This document shows positions 1 to 17,664 of a stretch of DNA of 35,108 nucleotides, piece after piece. The notes beneath the pieces were generated by a model. It searched no databases and was not told the DNA's origin. It saw only the letters and a program-made list of their open reading frames with translations. A program made the position numbers and the translations under genes. The DNA comes from a virus, in the IMG/VR virus record IMGVR_UViG_3300028198_000279, positions 1-35,108 of that record. One strand, written 5' to 3'. Every line of letters starts with the position of its first letter. The first letter of the stretch is position 1.

Positions 1-276
1 AATATTATGTGAAACATTCTGTAGGTTCACCACAGATGAATCTGGGTGGTCTAATTCCCCCATAGCCCGACGTTCTTTAATATAGGTGGTTGTATACTTC
101 TTAGCCTCTCTTACTAAAACTTCACGCGGATAAACTCTACCATTTTGGTTTTTAGCCTCTGCTCGTTGAAGTACACCTTTAACAATTAATTTACCATCAT
201 TTTCTTTTAATGATTCATTTATCTGTTCCGATTTTACTTCAAATGGTAGATAATCTACTAATAGTTCCTTGTTCAT
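1..276 (-). CDS. gp21: Prohead core protein protease (T4 gp21-like), 5' part; runs off the left edge
   Basis: Not in the ORF track. Manual translation from ATG at 276 gives MNKELLVDYLPFEV...LIVKGVLQRAEAKNQNGRVYPREVL...RRAMGELDHPDSSVVNLQNVSHNI. NxNGRxYP and GELDHP are typical gp21-family motifs, and the gene lies downstream of the portal as in T4. Confidence 0.93.
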   Translation of the reverse strand, partial: MNKELLVDYLPFEVKSEQINESLKENDGKLIVKGVLQRAEAKNQNGRVYPREVLVREAKKYTTTYIKERRAMGELDHPDSSVVNLQNVSHNI

Positions 277-1876: not shown

Positions 1877-3688
1877 TTACGATTTAGAATTTATTTCCTT
1901 ATCATATTCCTCTTTTACTTCCTCAGACTCAGTTAATATCTTTGTATGAGGTTTAATTAATGTTCCCTTTAGTTTATCAACGTGGGCTAAAGCTAATGAC
2001 TTACCATATTTAGGTGCTCCACTCCCACCTTTTCTTTTATCGTGTTTTCCTAATGGATCTCTTCCTCTTGCACTACCATCTTTTCCATAGTGAGGGCCTT
2101 CTTTAGGTCTACCTGCTCCCGGCTGTCCACCTTCTGGAGCTCCACCCTCATCTTCTAACTCATGACCAGTTCTTCCCATAGCTAAATCACTCGGTGTTCC
2201 TTGTGATTCACCAGATTTTGCTGGATCATTTCCTTCCGTTTCTATTTGTCCTCTTCTAAATTTTTGCTTAAAATCGAAAACAATACCTTCATCTTCTTTT
2301 TTAATTTCTTCTTCGGTGAATCCAAATATGTTTCTATAAATCCAATCTGTAGAAACTATACCATCTTGTAACATTGAAGATGCAAGTGAAGTTTTACTCG
2401 TCCACAACTCAATTTTTTCTTGTTCATATATTGTAGATGGATTTGTTAAACCTAAATCAAAATTAACTAAATCTGCGTCTGTATATCCTTGTACGTATAA
2501 ATGTACAATAGCAATCTTTGTTAATTCACTAACAATAATTCTTTGTATTCTTTCAATCGTTCTTGCAAATCTAACATCTTCTGCTGCTAAAGTTGCCTTT
2601 GAACCAACTTGTTCTTCGTATCCAAGAAACGCCTTTGGAATCTTTAATGCTGCCATCAACTTATTTCTTAGATACTCAATATCTTCAACTGCTTCATAAG
2701 TTAATCCAGGTAATGAATCTATTTGTGTTCCACTATCTCCACCACGAACAGGTACAAAGAAATCTTCTGTTATGTTTTGCATATTATATCGTAAATTATA
2801 ATCACCAGATTCTTTTTCTACTACGGGTGCCTTTTTCATTTTATTGATAATTTGTTGCATATAATTATCAACTTCGTTTGGTGGAATATTACCTATATCA
2901 ATTTTAAATACTCTCTTTTCTGGAGCTCTCATAATTCTGTGAATCAACATAGCATCTTCCATAAGTGAAAGTTGTTTCCAAGTCTTTCTACCACCTTCAA
3001 CCATAGCCTTACCATACGGTAAATAATTTGAATCTCCCAATAATCTAAAATGTGCAATTTCGAAATTTTCAAATTCTTGTTGAGTATGAGTTACTTTTGT
3101 CTGATTTGGATCTGCTGATTCTAATACAAACTTAACATATTCTGGATTTTCTGGATCAATTCCTTCTAATCTCACTACATCATAGCTTGATAACGGAACT
3201 ACATTTTTAACTCCATATTTATCATCTATTTCTAAATGTAAAAAGAAATCTCCATACTTACACATATTACGAACCCAAGACCATAAATTAAATTCTACAT
3301 TCAAAATATCATAAAATAAATTATGTAATATTTGTTTTATTTGATCATTATCACTATTGATTGTTAAAACATCACCATACTCGGATTTCATTGTTGATTC
3401 ATCTGAATAAACATCCAATGCTGATGATATAATAGAATCACTATCCATTGATTCATAATCTCTAAATAACCCTAACCGCATTGAGCGTACCATCGCGGTA
3501 TCTGAATATCCAGATAATCCTTTACCCGTTGAAAACAATCGTTGATATCTATCCACCAATTGTTTTTGTGGTAAATATTGTACTTTACTCGTATCTGCTA
3601 CTTTTAATTTTCTTCCACCAACGTTTCTAACAATAACGTTACCTGAAAATAATCTAAACAGTCGAGCTCTTATTGATGTATCTGCCAT
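1877..3688 (-). CDS. gp20: Portal vertex protein (T4 gp20-like)
   Basis: Motifs MEDAMLIHRIMRAPEKRVFKIDIGNIP, EDFFVPVRGG..GTQIDSLPG, DIEYLRNKLMAALKIPKAFL and EDVRFARTIERIQ are characteristic of gp20 portals. It sits next to the terminase. Confidence 0.96.
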   Translation of the reverse strand: MADTSIRARLFRLFSGNVIVRNVGGRKLKVADTSKVQYLPQKQLVDRYQRLFSTGKGLSGYSDTAMVRSMRLGLFRDYESMDSDSIISSALDVYSDESTMKSEYGDVLTINSDNDQIKQILHNLFYDILNVEFNLWSWVRNMCKYGDFFLHLEIDDKYGVKNVVPLSSYDVVRLEGIDPENPEYVKFVLESADPNQTKVTHTQQEFENFEIAHFRLLGDSNYLPYGKAMVEGGRKTWKQLSLMEDAMLIHRIMRAPEKRVFKIDIGNIPPNEVDNYMQQIINKMKKAPVVEKESGDYNLRYNMQNITEDFFVPVRGGDSGTQIDSLPGLTYEAVEDIEYLRNKLMAALKIPKAFLGYEEQVGSKATLAAEDVRFARTIERIQRIIVSELTKIAIVHLYVQGYTDADLVNFDLGLTNPSTIYEQEKIELWTSKTSLASSMLQDGIVSTDWIYRNIFGFTEEEIKKEDEGIVFDFKQKFRRGQIETEGNDPAKSGESQGTPSDLAMGRTGHELEDEGGAPEGGQPGAGRPKEGPHYGKDGSARGRDPLGKHDKRKGGSGAPKYGKSLALAHVDKLKGTLIKPHTKILTESEEVKEEYDKEINSKS

Positions 3689-7127: not shown

Positions 7128-7745
7128 CTATACTCCGTATTGCCTTTTATATTTGTAATATGTCGGAATACTTACACCTAATTCATAGATGATTTCTGTT
7201 ACTGACTTATTACTTTCTAATACTTTTATTAAATCTTCTTTTTTCACTTTCGGGTTTTCCTCATAATATCTTTTGTGAGCCAATCTCTGTTTCTCTCTAT
7301 ACTCATCACTTTTCCAAAGTTCTTTACTAACTTTAGAAACTCCTCTTGAAATTTTTTCTCTTACTTCTTTACTTCTCATTACTTCCTTATGTATCTTTGA
7401 GTTTCTTTGTGCTAAACTCATTTTCTTTTTTTGTTCTTTCGTTCTCCTTAAACCCAATGTTGCTTTACCACCTGCAACTGCATCATTAGTTAAACCACCT
7501 GGTGAAATATTGTATTCTGGTTTTAATTTACTAATCCAATATTTCTCTCTTTCATCTAATTTATCAATACTATCTACTACTTCTAATGTTTCAACAATAA
7601 AGTTTTCACCACCATACTTTTTGATAGCATTACTCAATATAATTCCACTACCTTTATAATAGCGATTATTATTTTGTCTGGTCTGTCCTATGTAGAACTT
7701 TCCATTCAATAAATTGGTTGTTTTATATATTCTATAATATCCCAT
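7128..7745 (-). CDS. GIY-YIG homing endonuclease (Seg-like, free-standing)
   Basis: IYKTTNLLNGKFYIGQT GIY-YIG motif, conserved R/E/N module residues, basic NUMOD3-like repeats and a C-terminal HTH-like segment. The start is more likely the ATG at 7745 (AAAGGT upstream) than 7772. Confidence 0.9.
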   Translation of the reverse strand: MGYYRIYKTTNLLNGKFYIGQTRQNNNRYYKGSGIILSNAIKKYGGENFIVETLEVVDSIDKLDEREKYWISKLKPEYNISPGGLTNDAVAGGKATLGLRRTKEQKKKMSLAQRNSKIHKEVMRSKEVREKISRGVSKVSKELWKSDEYREKQRLAHKRYYEENPKVKKEDLIKVLESNKSVTEIIYELGVSIPTYYKYKRQYGV

Positions 7746-7781
7746 ACCTTTATATAAATATATAGGATACAAAAAAATGTA

Positions 7782-10700
7782 TTAAAAGTTCACCAATCCC
7801 AAAATCTGGTTAATCGGAGCAAAACTTCCTGTAAACTTATAAGTATTACCTTTATACTTAAATACTATTCCTTCTGATGGAACTATTGAAGATAGTCCAC
7901 CAATTGCTTCTAATTTTTCAAGTTGGTGTTTTAACGTAGCCAACTTTTTAACATCTTTACCTCGTTTTACCTGTTTTATTGCCGCAATTACATCTCTTCT
8001 TATCTTTTGTACCGTACTATCTCCCGAAACTGCTAAATATCCACTAATATTCTTCAATATTTGTGCACCTACATCAAAAAATAAAACTTCAAAGGGTTTC
8101 ATATTCTGTTTTACCGTTTCTTGATGGTCATTCTTATCAAATGATAATACCCAGTCTAAAAAATCAGGAAATTTCTTCAAATCTTTTTTAATCGTTGGTA
8201 TCTTATATGACTTATCAAAAAACGCCCATCTTTTAGTTAAATTAATCAAAACTTTATTCGATATTTTTGCACTATGTTGTTTTGTTGCGTTAAAGATAAA
8301 TTCTTCCCAAAATGATTGATGATACATAGATAAAGTATCATTATCTTTTAATGCATATTCTTTTTGTAATTTATTTAATCTACTGATAAACCCAGCCTTC
8401 TTTTTTCCAAAATCTTGTACTTTAGATACTGTTAAAAATTGAGGTTTACCAATTTTATAATGTTTTTGTACGTGTTGATTAACTTGTTTAATCATACCTG
8501 CCAACATTCGTCCAGAACCTTTAAGTTCTCCAATTGCCTTCCCGCTATCATCATATTCTAATGCTCCGTGAAATACAATCTCTGCTTTATCATAATTGAT
8601 TACATTTGATGATGCTGGATACATGACTTCAAGATTCATCCAATTCTTACCATTACCAAAAATCTTTTCTTTTTGTGCATCGGATAATCTACCGATAGAT
8701 TTTCCCAAATCTTTCATTGCAAATACAAAGGCATCTCTAATATCACCTCTACCTGCAAACTTAGATGCTACTCCACTCGTATCCATCGAATTTGCTCCAA
8801 AATTCTTTAGTTGACCTTTATTTCTGGCCGTGACTAATTTTCCATCTTTCCAACTAACCATTAAATTTTGACCATCAAGTTTCTCTGTAACATTATCTTC
8901 ACGACTAAGATTTCCACCCAATCCTAAAGTAATAATGTTTTTTAAATCACCAAATGTCAAATTTTTATCATCAAAGGGATGATTCATGTGTCCATAGGCT
9001 CCACCCATTAATAATAACTCCTTTCCATTATCTTGTTTATCTGTAACTAATAAATTTACATATTCTTTTAAATCAAAAATATTATCACTATGAAATTTAT
9101 CCATTGGTGATAATTTAAGCTTTTTTGCTCTTTTTGTATTTTGTCCAACTGAGTCTATATCAACTCCGGCCGATACGGGTGCCTCAACTGCCACTCCTGT
9201 ATAATCTTTACCATCGGGAGTAATTCCGTTCCAATTAAGAACTTCCCAACCCAAACTACTCATTATAAATTTTATTCTATCTTTATATGCCTCTATTGGA
9301 TTTGTCTTACCAAATCTTTCACCGTAGGCTCCAGCTCCTTTTTTACCATATGCCACTGCCGGAACTATGTTTTTTGAAGTTGTATAATCAAGTCCTGGAT
9401 CTTTTGCAGAATCACTTATAATATAACTCAATAAATCCCAACCCGTATCATTGATTTGTTCATGAGAATACATATTTTCAATCCAAGACTTTGTAACTCG
9501 TTTGTAATCCTCAAATCCATCATAAAATGTTGGTGGGCCGTCATCCGTAGGAAACATACCACTATTAGCAACTTCTTTTAATAATTTTGGTATAATATTT
9601 GGATTATTAACTAAAAACCCATCATATACTTCAAATAATTTTTTAAATTTATTAGTCATCATTTGGAATACCCCTTTATCAAAGTATCCGAATGCCTTTT
9701 TAAATAATTTTTCTCTATTCTTTTCAAATTCAGGTGAACCAAGTAGTTGTCTTATAGTAGTTCCACTTACTTCCTTTCCACCAACTCTAACTGAAACGTG
9801 TGGTGCTGTATGAATGTATCCGTGTTCCTCGTATCCACTCATGTTATTTTTATTCTTTTTATAATCTTGATAATAAGTTTTTCCACCACTTTTCTTTGTT
9901 CCACCCGTTAATCTATCGGCGTCCTTTTCACCAAATATGTAAATTACTGCAGTTGTTTCTTCATCAAATTTATTTAATGTGTTTTTAGCAACATAAGGTG
10001 TTCTTTCTTTTATAATACGATTAGATGGTATACCCATTTTTTTCATATGACGAACTTTTTCCTTAAAGTTCATTGGATGTCTTGGTGGTTGTTTTATATC
10101 AGATGTAGTGATATATGCTACATCAACTTGTTTTTCTAACCATTTATAGGTTTTCAAATGGTGGGGCCCAAACGGTTGAAACCGTCCACCGTATACACCT
10201 ACGACTTTTTTAATTTTTGATTTTTCTTCTATCACATTAGTTGTGGCTTCACTTTTCTCACTAATGGAATATACAACATTTTTAGTATATAAGTCAAGCG
10301 TTTTATTAAGTTTTTCAACAGTCACTCCAGTATCTTTAATTGCACTTTTCTTCTCTGCCTTATCTGTAGTAACGTATGTGTCGTATTTATCACCTGGAGA
10401 ATGTTCATATTGACGAACTTTTAATTTAATTTTTGATTCATAATCGCTTGGTAAAGTATTCTCAATTCCTAAAAATTTAACCGCTCCTGGTATCAAATAT
10501 AAAGTCACTTCTTTTTTATTTAAATTCATCATTAACTGACTTGATGTCCAGAGTTTATTTTGTGCCCTAACTAAATCATATTTGGGGCCTTCATTTTGTT
10601 TATGATTATAAAACGATGGAAATACCTTCTTGTAATCTTTTTCTTTAGTTAATATCTCTAAAGAATTATTCAATCTCACTACAGAAGAATGTCTATCTGT

Positions 10701-12563
10701 TCCACTAGTATATCCTTGTTCTGGATGATAAATCCCGTGATTTGACTTAACTACTGGTTGTTTTAAATCTTGTATTTTCACATAAGGACTAACTCTACTT
10801 GTATTTTCTATTTCAACTAATTTATTTCCATCACTAATTAATGTATGTCCCTTAATACCACCATGATATGTTATAAGTGATTCAACTGCATCTTTTAAAG
10901 TCGTTTTAGAAAGTGCCTCTCTGATTCTTACACCATCTTTAGACATAGCCTTCTTTTTCTTTGCTTTATCAAAATCTTTCTCATCTCGTTTTACAAATAG
11001 TGCTGAATTTACAATTCCTATTCCATGAGAATTCATTCCTTCTGACCAATCTGTATCTTGGTCTATCATATAACATAACTCCACACCATAACCAGTTAGT
11101 TCCCTAACTACTTTTAGATTTGGATTATAATTTCTATCTCGGTTTTTACCTATTACAATATCATCACCAAATTTTTTGGCTATTGCAATACATTCATCTA
11201 CTTTACGATATTCATCATCTTTTCGTTGTTTATCTAATTGTTTTTTTACTTTATTAACTTTCTTTACACTTGGTGCACCACCAATAGATTCTTTTCTAAA
11301 AGTTCCAAATTTTGGTTGACCTGATTTTTTTGTTCTTTTTCCACGACTAACTAAATTTTCATCATCTGGTGAATTAACGGGTGTGGGTGCCTGATTATCA
11401 AGATAATTTGGTGGATTTAACATCTCGGTTGTAATCTTTTGTTTATCTAACCACTTTTTAGCCTGTTTACTTTTTATTGGTTTTTTAATAAATTTACTAA
11501 TTCCCTTTCTAACCAACATATTGAATTTTCTCTGTGCTTGTTTTGGATTCAAGGTAGCATTATTATCTACTAACATAAAGTTAGACCCACCAAATAATCC
11601 TTGAAAGTATGCCATATTTTTTTGAACATTATTCCAATACTTTTCTACAAGTTCAGATGGTAAAACTCTATCTCTTAATTTATTTCTCATTTGTGCAACT
11701 TCTAATGAAGTATTAACAAATACCATATAGGTATCATAACCTAAATCAATCAATTTTTGTCGTTCTTTTTTTACATCTGAAAATTTATGACCAGTACCAT
11801 CAATAATAACACCAAGTCTACCTTTTGAATATAACTTTAATCTTTGTTTACTCAATGCTTTAGCGTGTGTTCTCACTCCCATATGTGCACTATAACTTGG
11901 GTCTGTAATCTGTCTAAATAAATCATTTGACATATTATCTAAATCTGTTGTACCAAAATACTTTTTCAAAAACATTTCTAATTCTGTATCTTGATTAACA
12001 AGTTTTAATCCGTATGCTGAAGTGGTTAATTTATCGGGTATTCCAAACAATCCACCAGCAACATATGACTTTCCACTACCTGGCCCACCTGCAAGAAATA
12101 CTGCTTTGAATATTCCTGGATCATTTTTTCCTTCAAATAAATCATCTGCTTTCCAAATATCTTTTGGGTCTTGTGCCATATCTAAAACTTGTATTCGAGC
12201 TTTCGTAACTCCGTGTTTCTTAGTTAATATTTTTATTATCTTTTTAGCTTCGGAATGTGATTTAGCCTTTGTATAAAGTATATCTTCGTGTTTCTTACCT
12301 GGAGGAATACCCCAAATTACAAATTCTTTTTTACTTTCATCTATAGTATCTTCGTCAAATATATTAACTGTTTTATGTATTCTGAATGTGGCAGCTTTTC
12401 TACCATTGATAGTTGGCATGCCGTGGTCATCTTTACCAATATCTTTGATTTTCATTTTCTTGTTTTTAAATTTACCAACAAGAATAGTATCACCAATATT
12501 AACTGGTATATTTATATCTTCTTCTATCAGGGGTTTAGTTAACCATTCAGTTAATTTATTCAC
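7782..12563 (-). CDS. 1593-aa multidomain protein: P-loop kinase + Ntn hydrolase + HIGH-type nucleotidyltransferase + KxDG ligase-like domain
   Basis: GGPGSGKS at 12066-12089; DE|CIAIAK...KNRDR...EGMN at 11190 onward; GGRFQPFGPHH at 10158-10190; EKLDG at 8871-8885 and EGIV...K near 7863-7874. GTG start. Confidence 0.85.
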   Translation of the reverse strand: MNKLTEWLTKPLIEEDINIPVNIGDTILVGKFKNKKMKIKDIGKDDHGMPTINGRKAATFRIHKTVNIFDEDTIDESKKEFVIWGIPPGKKHEDILYTKAKSHSEAKKIIKILTKKHGVTKARIQVLDMAQDPKDIWKADDLFEGKNDPGIFKAVFLAGGPGSGKSYVAGGLFGIPDKLTTSAYGLKLVNQDTELEMFLKKYFGTTDLDNMSNDLFRQITDPSYSAHMGVRTHAKALSKQRLKLYSKGRLGVIIDGTGHKFSDVKKERQKLIDLGYDTYMVFVNTSLEVAQMRNKLRDRVLPSELVEKYWNNVQKNMAYFQGLFGGSNFMLVDNNATLNPKQAQRKFNMLVRKGISKFIKKPIKSKQAKKWLDKQKITTEMLNPPNYLDNQAPTPVNSPDDENLVSRGKRTKKSGQPKFGTFRKESIGGAPSVKKVNKVKKQLDKQRKDDEYRKVDECIAIAKKFGDDIVIGKNRDRNYNPNLKVVRELTGYGVELCYMIDQDTDWSEGMNSHGIGIVNSALFVKRDEKDFDKAKKKKAMSKDGVRIREALSKTTLKDAVESLITYHGGIKGHTLISDGNKLVEIENTSRVSPYVKIQDLKQPVVKSNHGIYHPEQGYTSGTDRHSSVVRLNNSLEILTKEKDYKKVFPSFYNHKQNEGPKYDLVRAQNKLWTSSQLMMNLNKKEVTLYLIPGAVKFLGIENTLPSDYESKIKLKVRQYEHSPGDKYDTYVTTDKAEKKSAIKDTGVTVEKLNKTLDLYTKNVVYSISEKSEATTNVIEEKSKIKKVVGVYGGRFQPFGPHHLKTYKWLEKQVDVAYITTSDIKQPPRHPMNFKEKVRHMKKMGIPSNRIIKERTPYVAKNTLNKFDEETTAVIYIFGEKDADRLTGGTKKSGGKTYYQDYKKNKNNMSGYEEHGYIHTAPHVSVRVGGKEVSGTTIRQLLGSPEFEKNREKLFKKAFGYFDKGVFQMMTNKFKKLFEVYDGFLVNNPNIIPKLLKEVANSGMFPTDDGPPTFYDGFEDYKRVTKSWIENMYSHEQINDTGWDLLSYIISDSAKDPGLDYTTSKNIVPAVAYGKKGAGAYGERFGKTNPIEAYKDRIKFIMSSLGWEVLNWNGITPDGKDYTGVAVEAPVSAGVDIDSVGQNTKRAKKLKLSPMDKFHSDNIFDLKEYVNLLVTDKQDNGKELLLMGGAYGHMNHPFDDKNLTFGDLKNIITLGLGGNLSREDNVTEKLDGQNLMVSWKDGKLVTARNKGQLKNFGANSMDTSGVASKFAGRGDIRDAFVFAMKDLGKSIGRLSDAQKEKIFGNGKNWMNLEVMYPASSNVINYDKAEIVFHGALEYDDSGKAIGELKGSGRMLAGMIKQVNQHVQKHYKIGKPQFLTVSKVQDFGKKKAGFISRLNKLQKEYALKDNDTLSMYHQSFWEEFIFNATKQHSAKISNKVLINLTKRWAFFDKSYKIPTIKKDLKKFPDFLDWVLSFDKNDHQETVKQNMKPFEVLFFDVGAQILKNISGYLAVSGDSTVQKIRRDVIAAIKQVKRGKDVKKLATLKHQLEKLEAIGGLSSIVPSEGIVFKYKGNTYKFTGSFAPINQILGLVNF

Positions 12564-12580: not shown

Positions 12581-13078
12581 TTATACTGAAAGTGCTCTCT
12601 TATACCATCCAAATATAAATCTCTCTTGTTCTGGTTTTCTATTCACTAAATCATAATAGTGTTTTAGACGATAACAACGAACTCTATCTACAGATGGATT
12701 ATATTTTGACAATGCTGCCTTAGTACCTGGCCCAAATCCTCCATCGACTGATATTTTACCACCCTTACCATTGATTGCACTTTGTAAAATCTTTACTGCT
12801 GTTCTTCTACCTTGATTTACACACATATCAAAATAAATATGTTTTAAATTATCAGATACATCATCTATTTTATTCTTATCCCAATAATCTTTTTTATAGA
12901 TTTCTTTAGCACCTTCTTTAGTAAGGTTCTTGATATCTACATCAGGATAAAATCTCTTTGCTATACCAAAATTGGTTTCGCCCCCTAAATCACTCGGATC
13001 GTGAACATATCCACCCTCGTGTTCTAAAGTTAAATCAATTATTTCATCAAATGTAGTTAGTGTTTCATTATTTGCCAT
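12581..13078 (-). CDS. Glycoside hydrolase family 108 lysozyme with C-terminal peptidoglycan-binding region (probable endolysin)
   Basis: HEGGYVHDPSDLGGETNFGI (EGGY at 13007-13018), FDMCVNQG and DGGFGPGT. A GGAGG SD precedes the ATG at 13078, so the track's 13132 start is probably too long. Confidence 0.92.
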   Translation of the reverse strand: MANNETLTTFDEIIDLTLEHEGGYVHDPSDLGGETNFGIAKRFYPDVDIKNLTKEGAKEIYKKDYWDKNKIDDVSDNLKHIYFDMCVNQGRRTAVKILQSAINGKGGKISVDGGFGPGTKAALSKYNPSVDRVRCYRLKHYYDLVNRKPEQERFIFGWYKRALSV

Positions 13079-13097
13079 AAATAACCTCCGTATTAAA

Positions 13098-13331
13098 TTA
13101 AATAGCTTTTTTAATATGTTTAGATTTTCCATTCGTTAATTTTTCTTCTTGTTTTAATTTTACATCAGGTTTCCCTGTCAATTTATATCCAAGAACTTCT
13201 GCATTACTCATTCGAACCTTTTCAAATTCAGCTCTGTCCTTCTCATTCAACTCTCCACCAAACCCCTCATGTATCACTCGTTCAAGTTCTTCACCAATCA
13301 TTCTATGTATAGCTGCTTTTGTTATTTTCAT
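13098..13331 (-). CDS. Small hypothetical protein with MKITK... leader (candidate internal head protein)
   Basis: MKITKAAIHRMIGEELERVIHE leader. Confidence 0.7.
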   Translation of the reverse strand: MKITKAAIHRMIGEELERVIHEGFGGELNEKDRAEFEKVRMSNAEVLGYKLTGKPDVKLKQEEKLTNGKSKHIKKAI

Positions 13332-13332
13332 T

Positions 13333-13572
13333 TTAATCCCACCCTGAATGATTTTTTTCTAAGTGTCTATAAATCATAGTAACTATTTTTTTGAGAGTCT
13401 GTGCATGTTTTTTTAATTTTGCATCTTTTCTAGTATCAGTATTTCTTCCAACAAACCACTCAAAATTTTCAACTGCATCACCAAGTTCATAATATGCACT
13501 TTTAAGATTCATTTGTTCCTTTAACAATTCTTCTCTAATGATTTCTCTTAGTTGTGTTTTAGTTATTTTCAT
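13333..13572 (-). CDS. Small hypothetical protein with MKITK... leader (candidate internal head protein)
   Basis: MKITKTQLREIIREELLKE leader; ATGA overlap with the 728-aa ORF. Confidence 0.7.
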   Translation of the reverse strand: MKITKTQLREIIREELLKEQMNLKSAYYELGDAVENFEWFVGRNTDTRKDAKLKKHAQTLKKIVTMIYRHLEKNHSGWD

Positions 13573-15755
13573 TTTACTTTATTTCCTAACAATTTTACCC
13601 ATTCGTCATATTTTAATGAGACTGAACCTGTCCTTATGTTTCCATAATTAATGTTATCCATATCTCTAGCTCTACCACCACCGATTACTTTCAATGCCCT
13701 TTTTCTAAAATCATTTGGTATTACATCTTTTCCGGATCTTGCTACTCTTACGTCAATCCAGGGATTGTGGTTTGCCTGTTTTATAACTCTAACCTTTACA
13801 GGTATTTTAAGAAGTCTTCTCATATATGGTTTTAATTTTCTTGCGTATTTCGGATATTCTGACCATTCTTCTTTTGAAATTTTTTCATTTACGGATTCTT
13901 TAAGTGGTTTTCCATTTCTCAAAACCCTCTTAATAAATTTTACTCTTATTTGACTATCAAAATTTGATTTAGATAATTTTGCATCAGATGCAAACATTCC
14001 ACCAGTTGCTTTCTTTTTAGCAACTAAACCCATATGAATATTTTTACCATCATTTTTCGCAACATAATACTGAGCATAACCATAATCTATGGTATCTTTT
14101 GGTTGAATACTATCAAATTTTACGGCTTCATTTACGGATTCGTCAATCGGAGTCATATATCCACCAATCTTTTTCTTCTTTATCATAGTCATTGGTATGG
14201 TGTATCTCCAATTATCATTTGGATTATAAACTTTCATTCCTTTAGAGTCTATACTCACTACTTTAACGGTGTCTTTCCATTTTCCATAATTAAGTAAATA
14301 CCATTTCCCTACTTCTACATATCCACCTTTACTATGTGCTATTTTTGCTTCATTTACTGATTCCATTACACCAAATGCAATATCACCAACAACTCTATCT
14401 GGTTTAGATACATTTTTCTTATTTAAAATACCATATCTTTTACCATTCAACTTAAATGTATATCGTGGTAATCCCATACTTGTTTGGAAATCAGATTTAA
14501 TTCTAACCTTTTTTAACGCTCTACCAACATCCATAAAGTTTTTTGCAGATTTCACTATTTTTTCTATTGTGTCTAATTCTTTTGATTCATTTACTGATTC
14601 TTTTAACTTAACAATCTTATAATTTCCTCTGAATTGCCAATCCAATCCATTTAATTGATTTTTTGCGTCCTTTTCAGATTTAAATTGTAATGCGTCTTTT
14701 ACTTTTTTAACATCTCTGGATTTATTACTTAAATATCTATTTTTATCCTTCTTATATTGAATTACATATTTTAAGTTTCCTTCATTTACGGATTCATTTG
14801 CGTTTCGAAGTGCCACTTTTACTGTAGAATTTAAAGATAAACCTTTTTTAATTTTTTCAATTTTCTTAACAGCCCCTGTCATATTACCACTCATCTTTTT
14901 AGCTATATCTACTGCTTTCTTAATTAATATAGTAGAAACTCCTTCTTTCACAGATTCAAGTGATAACCATCCTTTTTTATTAGCTAAATCCCAAGTTTTT
15001 GGTGTAAAATGTTCTTTTCTATTACCTGGTGCAGCAAACATATAACTTGTTCCCCCAACACGACCAGTTTTAACACTTTTCAAAGTATATACTCTACGAG
15101 GGTCACTCTTAAATCTTACTTTCATTTTATTAATATCTTTTTTTTGTGGGCGAAGTGTTGTTTTGAATGAACCTTCATTTGCCGTTTCTTTTTTCAAACG
15201 ACTTTTTTCTGCTCTACCTCTATTTGTAGATTCTTTTTCAAATCCCATAATTTTTCCTCCCTTATGTGATGCGTCCTTACCATCACCATTACCGTAAGTT
15301 CCTTTTTTTCTGTTATACTGATTTAATTCTGCTCTATATTTTTTTGCTTTCGGAGATGAACCATATTTCTTGTATTCTGCTTTATAATCTCGTTCTTCTT
15401 TTATACCAAGAACTTTAGTTAAATTTAACAATACATCTATTATTTCATCAGATCTAAAACCATCAAGTTTACGATGAAATGGTTTAATCTTTGGATGATT
15501 GTAAACTTTCATTATTGTTTTAGCTGTTTTACCGTTCAAACGCATACCATCAACTTCACCATACTTGTTAGCTTTAGCCAATTTTTCAATTTTTTGAATT
15601 GGTGTCATTTTCTTTAGTTCATTTACGGATTTTATTTCTTGTCTTATAACACGGCGTAACTTTTCCCTTATAGCTTCTTCCTTTGCCCATTTCTTAGCCA
15701 TTTCTGGATCGTTTGCGTACATCCATTTTCTCTGTTTATCTGATTTGAAGGGCAT
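13569..15755 (-). CDS. 728-aa modular, highly basic protein with repeated ESVNE-type linkers (putative polyprotein of internal head proteins)
   Basis: In-frame linkers end at Glu 46, 121, 194, 271, 325, 390, 469, 543 and 624 (KSVNE, IKEE, ETANE, ESVKE and five ESVNE). The intervening modules are not similar to each other. Confidence 0.8.
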   Translation of the reverse strand: MPFKSDKQRKWMYANDPEMAKKWAKEEAIREKLRRVIRQEIKSVNELKKMTPIQKIEKLAKANKYGEVDGMRLNGKTAKTIMKVYNHPKIKPFHRKLDGFRSDEIIDVLLNLTKVLGIKEERDYKAEYKKYGSSPKAKKYRAELNQYNRKKGTYGNGDGKDASHKGGKIMGFEKESTNRGRAEKSRLKKETANEGSFKTTLRPQKKDINKMKVRFKSDPRRVYTLKSVKTGRVGGTSYMFAAPGNRKEHFTPKTWDLANKKGWLSLESVKEGVSTILIKKAVDIAKKMSGNMTGAVKKIEKIKKGLSLNSTVKVALRNANESVNEGNLKYVIQYKKDKNRYLSNKSRDVKKVKDALQFKSEKDAKNQLNGLDWQFRGNYKIVKLKESVNESKELDTIEKIVKSAKNFMDVGRALKKVRIKSDFQTSMGLPRYTFKLNGKRYGILNKKNVSKPDRVVGDIAFGVMESVNEAKIAHSKGGYVEVGKWYLLNYGKWKDTVKVVSIDSKGMKVYNPNDNWRYTIPMTMIKKKKIGGYMTPIDESVNEAVKFDSIQPKDTIDYGYAQYYVAKNDGKNIHMGLVAKKKATGGMFASDAKLSKSNFDSQIRVKFIKRVLRNGKPLKESVNEKISKEEWSEYPKYARKLKPYMRRLLKIPVKVRVIKQANHNPWIDVRVARSGKDVIPNDFRKRALKVIGGGRARDMDNINYGNIRTGSVSLKYDEWVKLLGNKVK

Positions 15756-15760
15756 TTTAA

Positions 15761-16048
15761 TTAAAATGCTCTCTCTATAGAATCATAATCACTAAATTTC
15801 TTTTTAGCATATGCGAATAATTTTTTGTCTAATGCGTTTCGAGCAATATTTGTTTCATTTGCTCGTCTTAAATAATCTTGAACTATATTAAGTCCTTTAT
15901 ATGCTTGTTCTAATTTTTTATCTACTTCTTTTGCCAAAATTATTCTAGCTTCTGTATGATTATTTACATCAGTAAGTCGCTCTATTTTATTAATAAGAGC
16001 TCCACCAAGTTCTTTCTTTTCTGTTAATATTTCTTTTAATTTTATCAT
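15761..16048 (-). CDS. Small hypothetical protein with MIKLKEILTE leader (candidate internal head protein)
   Basis: The leader shares ATGATAAAATTAAAAGAA with the next two ORFs; TAATG overlap. Confidence 0.72.
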   Translation of the reverse strand: MIKLKEILTEKKELGGALINKIERLTDVNNHTEARIILAKEVDKKLEQAYKGLNIVQDYLRRANETNIARNALDKKLFAYAKKKFSDYDSIERAF

Positions 16049-16326
16049 TATTTAAATTCCTTATATCCCATTTTACTTAACATACTATGTAAACCTACCA
16101 TAAAAGTAGTTAAGGCCTTATCTGTATCTGCCATTTTCTCATACTTTTTCACGAGATTACCTACATCAGTTCCAATTTTTCCTAACTTTTTATATAATTC
16201 AGCATCTGGATTTCTTTCATTTATAGTAGCCTCATGTTTCTTAGTAGAGGATTCTAATGTTGGTAAAGGTTCTCCAAATTTTCTTTTCCAAGAGTGTTCT
16301 TTTATTAATTCTTTTAATTTTATCAT
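16048..16326 (-). CDS. Small hypothetical protein with MIKLKELIKE leader (candidate internal head protein)
   Basis: AGGAG SD. The first 31 aa nearly duplicate those of the 16331 ORF, then diverge after ...TINE. Confidence 0.75.
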   Translation of the reverse strand: MIKLKELIKEHSWKRKFGEPLPTLESSTKKHEATINERNPDAELYKKLGKIGTDVGNLVKKYEKMADTDKALTTFMVGLHSMLSKMGYKEFK

Positions 16327-16659
16327 TACTTTAACTCCTATTTTCCATTGGATGACTTTTCATATATTTAACGAATTGTCTTGCACCATCAATATATCCT
16401 AATAATTCTTTTTTATCAACTCCCTTAAAAAATCCACTTTTTAATGCAACATTTAAAATAGCCTTTGTATTTTTATTTTTATTTCTCATTACTATACCCT
16501 GTAATACATCGGCTTGGTCGGAAGATAATATACCCATACCACCCTCATTTACTTTTTTAACTTTATGCTTTTCAGTAGAGGTTTCTAATGTTGGTAAAGG
16601 TTCTCCAAATTTTCTTTTCCATGCGTGTTCTTTTATTAATTCTTTTAATTTTATCATTA
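16234..16659 (-). repeat. 95-bp direct repeat (16234-16328 and 16565-16659)
   Basis: Manual alignment shows 6 mismatches in 95 nt. It encodes MIKLKELIKEH(S/A)WKRKFGEPLPTLE(S/T)ST(K/E)KH. Confidence 0.95.
16331..16657 (-). CDS. Small hypothetical protein with MIKLKELIKE leader (candidate internal head protein)
   Basis: The ATG at 16657 has a GGAG SD and a TAATG overlap with the upstream stop, so it is preferred over the track's 16675. The unique C-terminal module follows ...KVNE. Confidence 0.75.
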   Translation of the reverse strand: MIKLKELIKEHAWKRKFGEPLPTLETSTEKHKVKKVNEGGMGILSSDQADVLQGIVMRNKNKNTKAILNVALKSGFFKGVDKKELLGYIDGARQFVKYMKSHPMENRS

Positions 16660-17664
16660 TTTTAACTCCGTCCAATCTTGTGGATTACTGTATCGTGATT
16701 TATAATACCATTTTTTATCTTTTACAGACCAAATATATGCGAATTCATCACCACTATTAAATTTTAATTTATCTCTATTTCTCCATGTGCTCGACATACT
16801 ACTTTTTGAACCTCTATCACGACCATAAAATACTGTTTCACCTTTTTTTGGGTGTCCAAATGAATGGTCATCACCACCCTTAATACTTTTATCAATAGTA
16901 GAAATACCTTGTTTGCCAAGTTTCATTAATTGTTTAACTTTACCAGTATTGGAATAATACCGTTTTAACATTTTACCTGCATATTCTGGGTAACCATCAT
17001 AATGTCCATAGGTAGATGCTATTTTACCACTCGGTGCTTCAATACCAACCGACCAACGAGTTCCCTCTGTTAATACTGACTGAATTTCTTCTTTAATTAT
17101 TTCTTTAATTCTCGTTTTAGTTATTTTCATTGTTTTTTTCTCAGTTACGGAACAACAAGTATGTCCTTCTTTACAATTATCACAACACTCTTTATTTGTA
17201 AGTTTTCCTTCTTTAATGGATTCAAGAGATGGATATCCTCTTTGTACATTTATAACACTCGAAATAGCACGCTTTATACTTTTTTTACCTTGTCTATAAT
17301 TATAAAACTCATTTGCTATCATAGCAGATAAATAACTTAATCCTGGGTATTTTCTGGGATTGTATATTGGATATTTAGATGCTAAATAATCTGTTATTTT
17401 TTTTAGTTGGCTTCGAGGAGCTTTCTTTGGAAATTTTTTATCTAAATCTTTAAATGTAGATGTAATATTCTTTCTTAAAGCTGAATTTACTATTTTTTTT
17501 TCATTTACGGATTCCATTTTTTCAGTACTATGTGGTTCATCAAAATCTGAATCTTCTTCTGGTGCATAATCTCTAAATCCACTTGGATGTATATTTACAC
17601 CATCTATTATATTCTTATATTCTTCACGCACTATGCGTTTTAAAACTTCCAAAGCATCTGACAT
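16657..17664 (-). CDS. 335-aa modular protein (ESVNE/ESIKE linkers, Cys-rich micro-module, internal MKITK leader, C-terminal HYDGYP domain)
   Basis: GGAG SD; ESVNE at 17500; ESIKE at 17209; CCDNCKEGHTCC at 17152-17187; MKITKTRIKEIIKEEIQSVLTE at 17130; HYDGYP at 16987-17004. Confidence 0.78.
   Translation of the reverse strand: MSDALEVLKRIVREEYKNIIDGVNIHPSGFRDYAPEEDSDFDEPHSTEKMESVNEKKIVNSALRKNITSTFKDLDKKFPKKAPRSQLKKITDYLASKYPIYNPRKYPGLSYLSAMIANEFYNYRQGKKSIKRAISSVINVQRGYPSLESIKEGKLTNKECCDNCKEGHTCCSVTEKKTMKITKTRIKEIIKEEIQSVLTEGTRWSVGIEAPSGKIASTYGHYDGYPEYAGKMLKRYYSNTGKVKQLMKLGKQGISTIDKSIKGGDDHSFGHPKKGETVFYGRDRGSKSSMSSTWRNRDKLKFNSGDEFAYIWSVKDKKWYYKSRYSNPQDWTELK

Follow-up and report, generated by a model that had tools for sequence, protein, structure and literature searches.

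The stretch of DNA considered here, called the window below, is the 35,108-nucleotide sequence of the IMG/VR virus record IMGVR_UViG_3300028198_000279, from an uncultured marine T4-like phage, and the subject of this work is one of its open reading frames (ORFs), P0001, at 13569-15755 on the minus strand, which encodes a protein of 728 amino acids (aa) with a mass of 83.5 kDa, an isoelectric point (pI) of 10.1 and a net charge of +91. This protein consists of independent units, and the 15-base word at the linkers that separate them is the place where related phages gain, lose and replace modules. By analogy with phage T4, it is probably a cargo polyprotein of the phage head, comparable to T4 internal proteins strung together in several units.

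The ORF is interrupted in frame by eight linkers of the form (E/K)(S/T)(V/A)(N/K)E, namely KSVNE at residues 42-46, ETANE at 190-194, ESVKE at 267-271 and five copies of ESVNE starting at residues 321, 386, 465, 539 and 620, where the composition of the protein would lead one to expect about 6e-4 copies of ESVNE by chance in 728 aa. Together with a degenerate site, GIKE|E, these linkers bound ten modules:

15618-15755, minus strand: proposed leader and module 1, residues 1-46; a DUF3008-like N-terminal piece (MPFKSDKQRKWM...KEE) and an amphipathic helix ending in KSVNE
15396-15617, minus strand: module 2, residues 47-120; helical, ending in the degenerate site GIKE|E
15174-15395, minus strand: module 3, residues 121-194; ending in ETANE, matching phrog_6437 (E 5.6e-13), the most widespread module
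14943-15173, minus strand: module 4, residues 195-271; ending in ESVKE
14781-14942, minus strand: module 5, residues 272-325; helical, ending in ANE/ESVNE
14586-14780, minus strand: module 6, residues 326-390; alpha/beta
14349-14585, minus strand: module 7, residues 391-469; alpha+beta
14127-14348, minus strand: module 8, residues 470-543
13884-14126, minus strand: module 9, residues 544-624
13572-13883, minus strand: module 10, residues 625-728; a confident alpha/beta model, lacking a fold match

An earlier reading of this DNA (the original prediction) had already described an ORF cut up by in-frame linkers, without stating that it lies on the minus strand, and this description is confirmed, with module lengths that hold to within 1 aa; the site it had given as IKEE (118-121) is a real junction but is better read as the degenerate GIKE|E, because relatives show ESVKE|ERDYK, ESVEE|DRDYK or GVKE|ERDYK at that place with the same module behind. 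Its description of the modules as Lys-rich and mutually non-homologous is likewise upheld, as Lys makes up 17.3% of the polyprotein and no pairwise similarity between modules could be detected by blastp with the linkers removed (best E 0.19). Each of the ten modules has a pI of 9.6-10.6, the predicted products would measure 5.7-12.2 kDa, and the modules have no Met of their own. In contrast to the basic modules, sugar-pathway enzymes, terminase and portal of the window are acidic, with a pI of 5-6 in the enzymes, and the small neighbour genes at 13098-13572 and 15761-17664 are basic as well. No Pfam family was matched by the whole protein or by the ten modules singly at E up to 10, no PDB entry was matched in a sequence search, and PHROGs returned just two families, both annotated as being of unknown function (phrog_1375, phrog_6437); neither Pfam nor PHROGs found a protease family within the chain, the protease being a separate gene.

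The independence of the modules rests on comparison with more than 4,000 metagenomic relatives, which word-seeded searches brought up in two size classes, 1,799 with 400-1274 aa and 2,690 that were shorter, most of them having 10-30% of the query in common at 60-97% identity; the counts of motifs and modules across relatives refer to the best 120, while a single-linkage clustering of modules over-merged and served qualitatively only. In these 120 proteins ESVNE occurs 272 times and ESINE 86 times, and the modules of the target recur with their order and position changed: module 3 is found in 99 of the 120 and module 10 in 73, of which 38 carry it at the C-terminus. Among close relatives (alignment A1), module 5 is missing in P0003 and swapped for another module in P0002, P0004 and P0006, precisely at linkers, the N- or C-terminal modules differ, and the breakpoints fall exactly at ESVNE. 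Similarly, blastn matches between the window and IMG/VR loci begin and end at linkers. Modules 6-8 are 99.85% identical in the DNA of L001, against 77% for module 10; L006 and L007 join module 6 (99%) straight to module 10 (81%); in L002-L005 the figures are 99-100% for module 9, 93% for module 8 and 85% for module 10; and the DNA of module 6 is 98-99% identical in L006-L009 and L014, where the flanks differ. These linker-bounded jumps in identity show that individual modules were recently passed between phages that have otherwise diverged, the joins being made at the linkers. Thus, comparison with relatives supports the claim of the original prediction that one gene encodes a string of small modules, although two things had been overlooked there, namely that the linker is a conserved DNA word and that it is the breakpoint of module exchange.

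The most widespread module, module 3, is conserved at 84-96% identity in over 150 distinct protein architectures: an exhaustive search with it returned 786 clusters, of which the best 150 are 84-96% identical, and it can take any position in proteins of 119-682 aa. It also exists as a stand-alone gene in T7-like cyanophages, sited between TerS and HNH/TerL or among late genes, and in cyanophage P-SSP2 it is a 78-aa single gene between TerS and the HNH gene. The notion that this stand-alone gene acts early in host takeover was rejected on account of its position in the late region. A likeness of module 3 to HNH proteins is a weak lead, the nearest named Atlas clusters being HNH (scores 0.84-0.86, TM 0.59) with no support from sequence, and GNGDGKDASHKGGK...STNRG, a motif in it, bears a loose likeness to a His-Me finger. 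As for module 5, a homologue lies between the decayed linkers KESVQE, NESVRS and NESVELE in a 373-aa protein of Phage C48C1 (Kyanoviridae; L024 8461-9582), and the array architecture, as judged from this sequence and in an eroded form, reaches a GenBank record of a T4-like cyanophage in Kyanoviridae whose host is unrecorded.

At the protein level, comparison of sequences indicates that the polyprotein linkers carry the determinants of a T4-type cut site. The gp21 protease of T4 cuts after Glu at L/I-x-E, as first observed at a Glu-Ala bond (PMC9026906). A logo built from 272 distinct linker contexts of the 120 relatives shows V or I at P3 and E at P1, followed at P1' by A (98), G (64), K (32) or S (28); the eight linkers of the target have V or A at P3, with A only in ETANE, and E at P1. 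In T4, an Asp at P1 prevents the cut. This sets the linkers apart from the phiKZ type, which has a small residue at P3 (S/A/G-x-E), P3 being V or I in 272/272 canonical linkers. The junctions at which the motif is no longer intact are more telling: for modules that elsewhere stand behind ES[VI]NE, 311 distinct junctions with another pentapeptide were collected, and P1 is E in 246 of them, P3 being V, I, L or M in 211 of these 246, with P2, P4 and P5 variable. What selection preserves at these junctions is therefore the determinant for the protease, not the motif in full. The major capsid proteins offer a parallel: opposite the known cut site of T4 gp23, FLTE65|A, the alignment has QLIDE|S/A in the capsid proteins of two relatives and QIVSE|A in Flavobacterium phage immuto, Glu65 being invariant, and the capsid protein of Microcystis phage Mel-JY01 has QLISE|A at the gp23-type site. 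These two are the nearest cultured phages by portal identity (Mel-JY01 55%, immuto 52%); both have head genes in common with the window and similar capsid-protein cut sites, and immuto has similar leaders as well.

The linkers are also conserved as DNA, and in the target their words are placed as follows:

14781-14795, minus strand: linker DNA word GAATCCGTAAATGAA; the other seven linker words have their low coordinates at 15618, 15174, 14943, 14586, 14349, 14127 and 13884

Allowing up to 2 mismatches, this 15-mer has 7 copies in the window, every one of them on the coding strand and in frame. Across the target and 16 loci, the Val of the linkers is encoded by GTA in 62/62 cases and the Ile by ATA in 19/19, while Ser is TCC in 52/81 and never AGT or AGC; in the rest of the same ORFs GTA is used about as often as GTT, ATA about as often as ATT, and TCC accounts for 10% of Ser codons. 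An independent IMG/VR sample gave 167 matches to GAATCCGTAAATGAA, 96 of them within arrays, in whose partner linkers the V/I codon ends in A 219 times, in G 4 times and in T once, and the GTT version of the word gave 119 matches, 7 within arrays. In the IMG/VR arrays L248 and L258, on the other hand, every linker uses GTT for Val (GAATCAGTTAATGAA), so that usage is uniform per array and different between lineages. The case for a functional need that the V/I codon end in A is weakened by these all-GTT arrays, and homogenisation within lineages explains the identity of the DNA better; being homogenised in this way, the linkers are better accounted for by recombination or gene conversion acting on them than by a universal nucleotide function. 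That the 15-base word is more than passive microhomology and serves as a dedicated in-frame site of cassette exchange, where breaks or template switches would be targeted, for example by a phage GIY-YIG or HNH-type nuclease, is something of a long shot; if it were so, it would amount to an integron-like shuffling of injected proteins with the reading frame preserved. Both off-frames of the 15-mer are closed, the +1 frame reading ..CCG TAA ATG.. and the +2 frame ..AAA TGA, which leaves an out-of-frame stop-start pair that may be a by-product of GTA/ATA + AAT + GAA.

The position of the polyprotein genes with respect to the head genes is best seen in relative L009, where the order is portal, a 288-aa protein, a 198-aa core-like protein with ESINE, small genes with MKITKTQL leaders, the S77 protease (full-length, L009 6796-7410), leader genes, polyproteins of 668 and 428 aa, further leader genes, an acidic scaffold and the gp23-type capsid protein. 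In terms of a T4-like head module, the polyprotein family is therefore flanked by gene 21 on one side and genes 22/23 on the other. In the window every gene is read from the minus strand, and a sugar-modification cluster (17.7-35 kb) is followed by four basic genes with xxNE leaders, the target, two leader genes, a GH108/PG_binding_3 hydrolase, a 1593-aa multi-enzyme protein, a GIY-YIG endonuclease, TerL, a T4-type portal, three small proteins and, at the contig end, the first 92 aa of a Peptidase_S77 protease. Those neighbours that bear on the target are:

1-276, minus strand: prohead protease of T4 gp21 type, N-terminal 92 aa (PF03420 Peptidase_S77 6.5e-10, phrog_207 1e-21)
1877-3688, minus strand: Portal_T4
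13098-13572, minus strand: two small basic downstream genes with MKITK...-type leaders
15761-17664, minus strand: four basic upstream genes with leaders ending in xxNE (ESVNE51, KKVNE42, ATINE33)

The gp21-like gene that the original prediction had placed in the window is therefore confirmed by both profiles, and its product is proposed as the processing enzyme of the polyprotein.

A few types of leader recur ahead of cargo, MPFKS.KQRKWM (DUF3008-like), MKITKTQL..., MIKLKEL... and MDEYKSRLS.... In the target, residues 3-27 match phrog_1375 weakly (E 7e-4), and DUF3008 (PF11450) gave no Pfam match at E up to 1, its gathering score not being reached; the PF11450 threshold is, however, passed at the N-termini of relatives P0007, P0012, P0021 and P0053, with P0007 and P0021 scoring highest, and in ten long relatives Pfam found DUF3008 alone. 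A module beginning 'GGMGIL...' occurs in three settings, internally with ESVNE linkers on both sides (P0002, P0004 and P0006), as a gene of its own after ...KKVNE| (window 16331-16675), and after MKITKTQL...QSLKE| (L009), and its starting residue is identical in all three. Likewise, module 8 stands directly behind a leader of MIKLKEL type in P0188, and in P0220, P0225 and P0239 a 27-aa MPFKS... piece is followed directly by ESVNE. From these shared starts it follows that leader junctions are equivalent to linker junctions, which is what would be expected if leader and linker were both cut, releasing the same mature N-terminus.

The predicted structure agrees with a chain of separate domains. 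AlphaFold2 (AF2), run on the full polyprotein with a 62-row alignment, gave a predicted TM-score (pTM) of 0.30 for the whole chain with separately confident domains, confidence being good at residues 1-150, 326-465 and 625-728 and low in modules 4, 8 and 9, where the alignment is thin, and the linkers at 321, 386, 465, 539 and 620 lie in coil or in stretches with a low predicted local distance difference test score (pLDDT) between structured elements. A single integrated repeat fold, which the original prediction had set against its own reading, is ruled out because AF2 gives separate domains with coil linkers. The beta-barrel or helical character once proposed for the modules stands in part, as modules 1-3, 6, 7 and 10 are confidently helical or alpha/beta in the model, but modules 4, 8 and 9 are of low confidence. 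Modelled alone, module 10 reaches a pLDDT of 91 and a pTM of 0.83, with the order alpha-beta-beta-alpha-beta-alpha; nevertheless, Foldseek and VIA-align, run on the whole model and on module 10, turned up nothing informative (best E 0.33, best Z 4.5), and the sole return of a BFVD search was a homologous polyprotein of an uncultured Mediterranean phage.

If we accept the cargo polyprotein as the preferred reading, the protein would be made together with the head genes, and its N-terminal leader (residues 1-46), which we propose as an analogue of a capsid-targeting sequence (CTS), would bring the full-length chain into the prohead's scaffolding core. There the phage's own gp21-type (S77) serine protease would cut each (V/I/A)-(N/K)-E linker behind its final Glu and free about ten basic proteins, which would remain with the packaged DNA and probably enter the host alongside it. 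For leader targeting, cutting, packaging and ejection alike, the inference is drawn from T4. Given their uniform positive charge, the modules may at the least bind DNA and neutralise charge in the capsid, and in T4 internal proteins the Lys residues contact DNA phosphates (PMC3012670). The original prediction had gone further and seen in the modules anti-defence or host-takeover effectors, which finds no support in the lack of a Pfam match, in module 10 without a fold match, or in the late-region position of module 3. The internal proteins of T-even phages form a diverse, defence-countering set with only the CTS in common (PMC3012670), and this precedent is still a fair analogy for the modules of the polyprotein.

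Several results do not favour such a processed and packaged cargo. In sequence, the leader does not resemble the CTS of T4. The T4 late promoter TATAAATA shows no enrichment, with 11 copies where 10.95 would be expected, and avoidance of internal [VIL]xE in the modules is not significant, with 2 seen against 4.3 +/- 1.75 expected. The first site, KSVNE 42-46, lies inside a helix that AF2 predicts confidently (17-49), and the protease gene of this contig is incomplete, being cut by the contig end. The conservation of the linkers as DNA shows that they are also subject to forces beyond protease recognition. Finally, no cultured phage with these arrays was found, and within the head region examined immuto and Mel-JY01 have no ESVNE arrays.

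Among alternative explanations, the polyprotein could be a sacrificial part of the core or scaffold, in other words a basic partner of the acidic scaffold that is cut for clearance or kept as DNA counter-ions, its modules being filler. We hold this to be unlikely, even if a net charge of +91 faces an extremely acidic scaffold in the relatives, T4 gp22, gp67 and gp68 are core proteins chopped by gp21 (PMC9026906), and the propeptides of SPN3US are cut at several sites and then cleared (PMC10052503). It is also true that a recognisable function is absent from every module, in Pfam as in the fold search of module 10; but several modules fold confidently as domains in AF2, fragments of 6-12 kDa are large for expulsion from the capsid, and the 84-96% identity of module 3 in more than 150 architectures, together with its life as a single gene in T7-like phages, is a misfit for filler. 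T7 is not known to have a prohead protease. Alternatively, the chain could remain uncleaved, as beads on a string, with ES(V/I)NE an inter-domain spacer kept as a DNA recombination junction and one long multi-domain protein at work. The linker DNA is indeed conserved beyond the needs of the peptide and homogenised within lineages, and the breakpoints are located at linkers; however, junctions without the 15-mer still hold [VILM]-x-E with the other positions free, which is a constraint at the protein level that matches the protease rule, and a role in DNA only would leave the P1' preference for A/G/S and the equivalence of leader junctions unexplained, so that we regard this possibility as distinctly unlikely.

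A third possibility, that the polyprotein stays in the cytoplasm without being packaged and is cut there by a different Glu-specific protease, has nothing specific in its favour and is very unlikely given that the S77 head protease is the only protease seen in the window or in the loci of relatives, that the genes are embedded in the head module, and that no protease domain was found in the modules. It is scarcely credible that the ORF is a chimera of metagenome assembly, fusing unrelated genes at a short repeat: near-identical modules common to several phages could mislead assemblers, but the same architecture is present in thousands of proteins from independent samples and sources, the reading frame is open across all junctions, and mis-joining cannot create the boundaries of shared segments. 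Moreover, a repeat of 15 bases is, by our own estimate, probably below the usual k-mer length of assemblers.

Compared with known systems, the putative cargo polyprotein stands closest to the internal proteins of T4 (IPI, IPII, IPIII and Alt), since in both cases small basic proteins follow an N-terminal leader ending in hydrophobic-x-Glu, an S77 prohead protease is encoded in the same genome, and very diverse cargo is found behind conserved leaders (PMC3012670, PMC9026906). It differs in that T4 has one cargo per gene and leader, whereas here up to ten cargo units form one chain with internal sites; the leaders, of 27-50 aa, are unrelated in sequence to the 10-aa CTS of T4; and, unlike those of the T4 internal proteins, the genes lie within the head-gene cluster and their junctions share a DNA word for module exchange. 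Many ejection or inner-body proteins of phiKZ, 201phi2-1 and SPN3US are also cut after Glu by a gp21-related protease, some of them multiply (PMC10052503, PMC9026906), but in these giant phages the P3 residue is small, the multiple cuts mostly dismantle long N-terminal propeptides and do not separate domains, and neither a shared linker nor cassette shuffling has been described. The core proteins gp22, gp67 and gp68 of T4 are similar in that their genes lie beside the protease and they undergo several L/I-x-E cuts inside the prohead, yet they are acidic, conserved and essential for assembly, while the family of the target is basic, hypervariable and modular.

More distant comparisons can be made with the polyvalent proteins of phages and conjugative elements, which Iyer et al. 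are said to have described in 2017 and which reportedly combine many unrelated domains per chain, are thought to be delivered with the DNA, and are said to be very large and built of recognisable enzymatic or conflict-related domains. The modules of the target, in contrast, match no Pfam family and are bounded by a uniform linker of protease type, and the neighbouring 1593-aa gene (7782-12563) is nearer to that class than the target is. In adenovirus, the core precursors pVII and pX/mu are basic DNA-associated proteins matured by a packaged viral protease, although this is a eukaryotic virus with an unrelated cysteine protease and without multi-cargo arrays. Classical viral polyproteins, for their part, carry a protease domain of their own, and in the target chain Pfam and PHROGs found none. 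Searches of the literature on the linker motif, on internal proteins, the CTS and polyproteins, and on DUF3008 found nothing relevant and no paper describing polyprotein arrays, which is in keeping with the earlier view that the architecture is not a described system.

If the cargo reading is correct, the capsids of a large, abundant group of T4-like phages from marine and fresh waters would be loaded by a polyprotein strategy, which is otherwise associated with RNA viruses; one address tag would deliver up to ten different small proteins, the head protease would release them, and the set would be re-assorted between phages at a shared junction. Thousands of uncharacterised modules would then be candidates for proteins that reach the host before phage gene expression, and a natural plug-in format for the packaging of foreign proteins in phage heads would be suggested. 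The arrays also provide a sequence rule, [V/I]-x-E with A, G or S as the next residue, which is directly testable in viral metaproteomes.

Some features of the neighbouring genes may be added. The N-terminus of the protease itself holds EQINE|SLKE| in the window (1-276) and EQITE|S in L009 (6796-7410), which fits N-terminal self-processing. Upstream of the target, 16657-17664 on the minus strand encodes a basic 335-aa protein with ESVNE at residue 51 (exact 15-mer at 17500), ESIKE at 148, a Cys-rich stretch CCDNCKEGHTCC, and a second, internal leader MKITKT...EEIQSVLTE at about residues 178-200 ahead of a phrog_1987 domain; by its sequence, it looks like two fused leader-cargo genes. The GH108 + PG_binding_3 peptidoglycan hydrolase at 12581-13132 (minus strand, pI 9.1), in which a clear hydrophobic-x-E leader site was not seen, stands within the cluster of basic leader genes and could be the endolysin or an ejected wall-degrading protein. 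The GIY-YIG homing endonuclease at 7128-7772 (minus strand) lies amid head and packaging genes, comparable to segD/segE in the head-gene region of T4, and might contribute to local gene conversion. In L009, an 88-aa gene of the head module (13673-13939) resembles, by eye, the ribosomal protein S21 (RpsU) gene that is annotated at the equivalent position of Mel-JY01 (L028 22183-22410).

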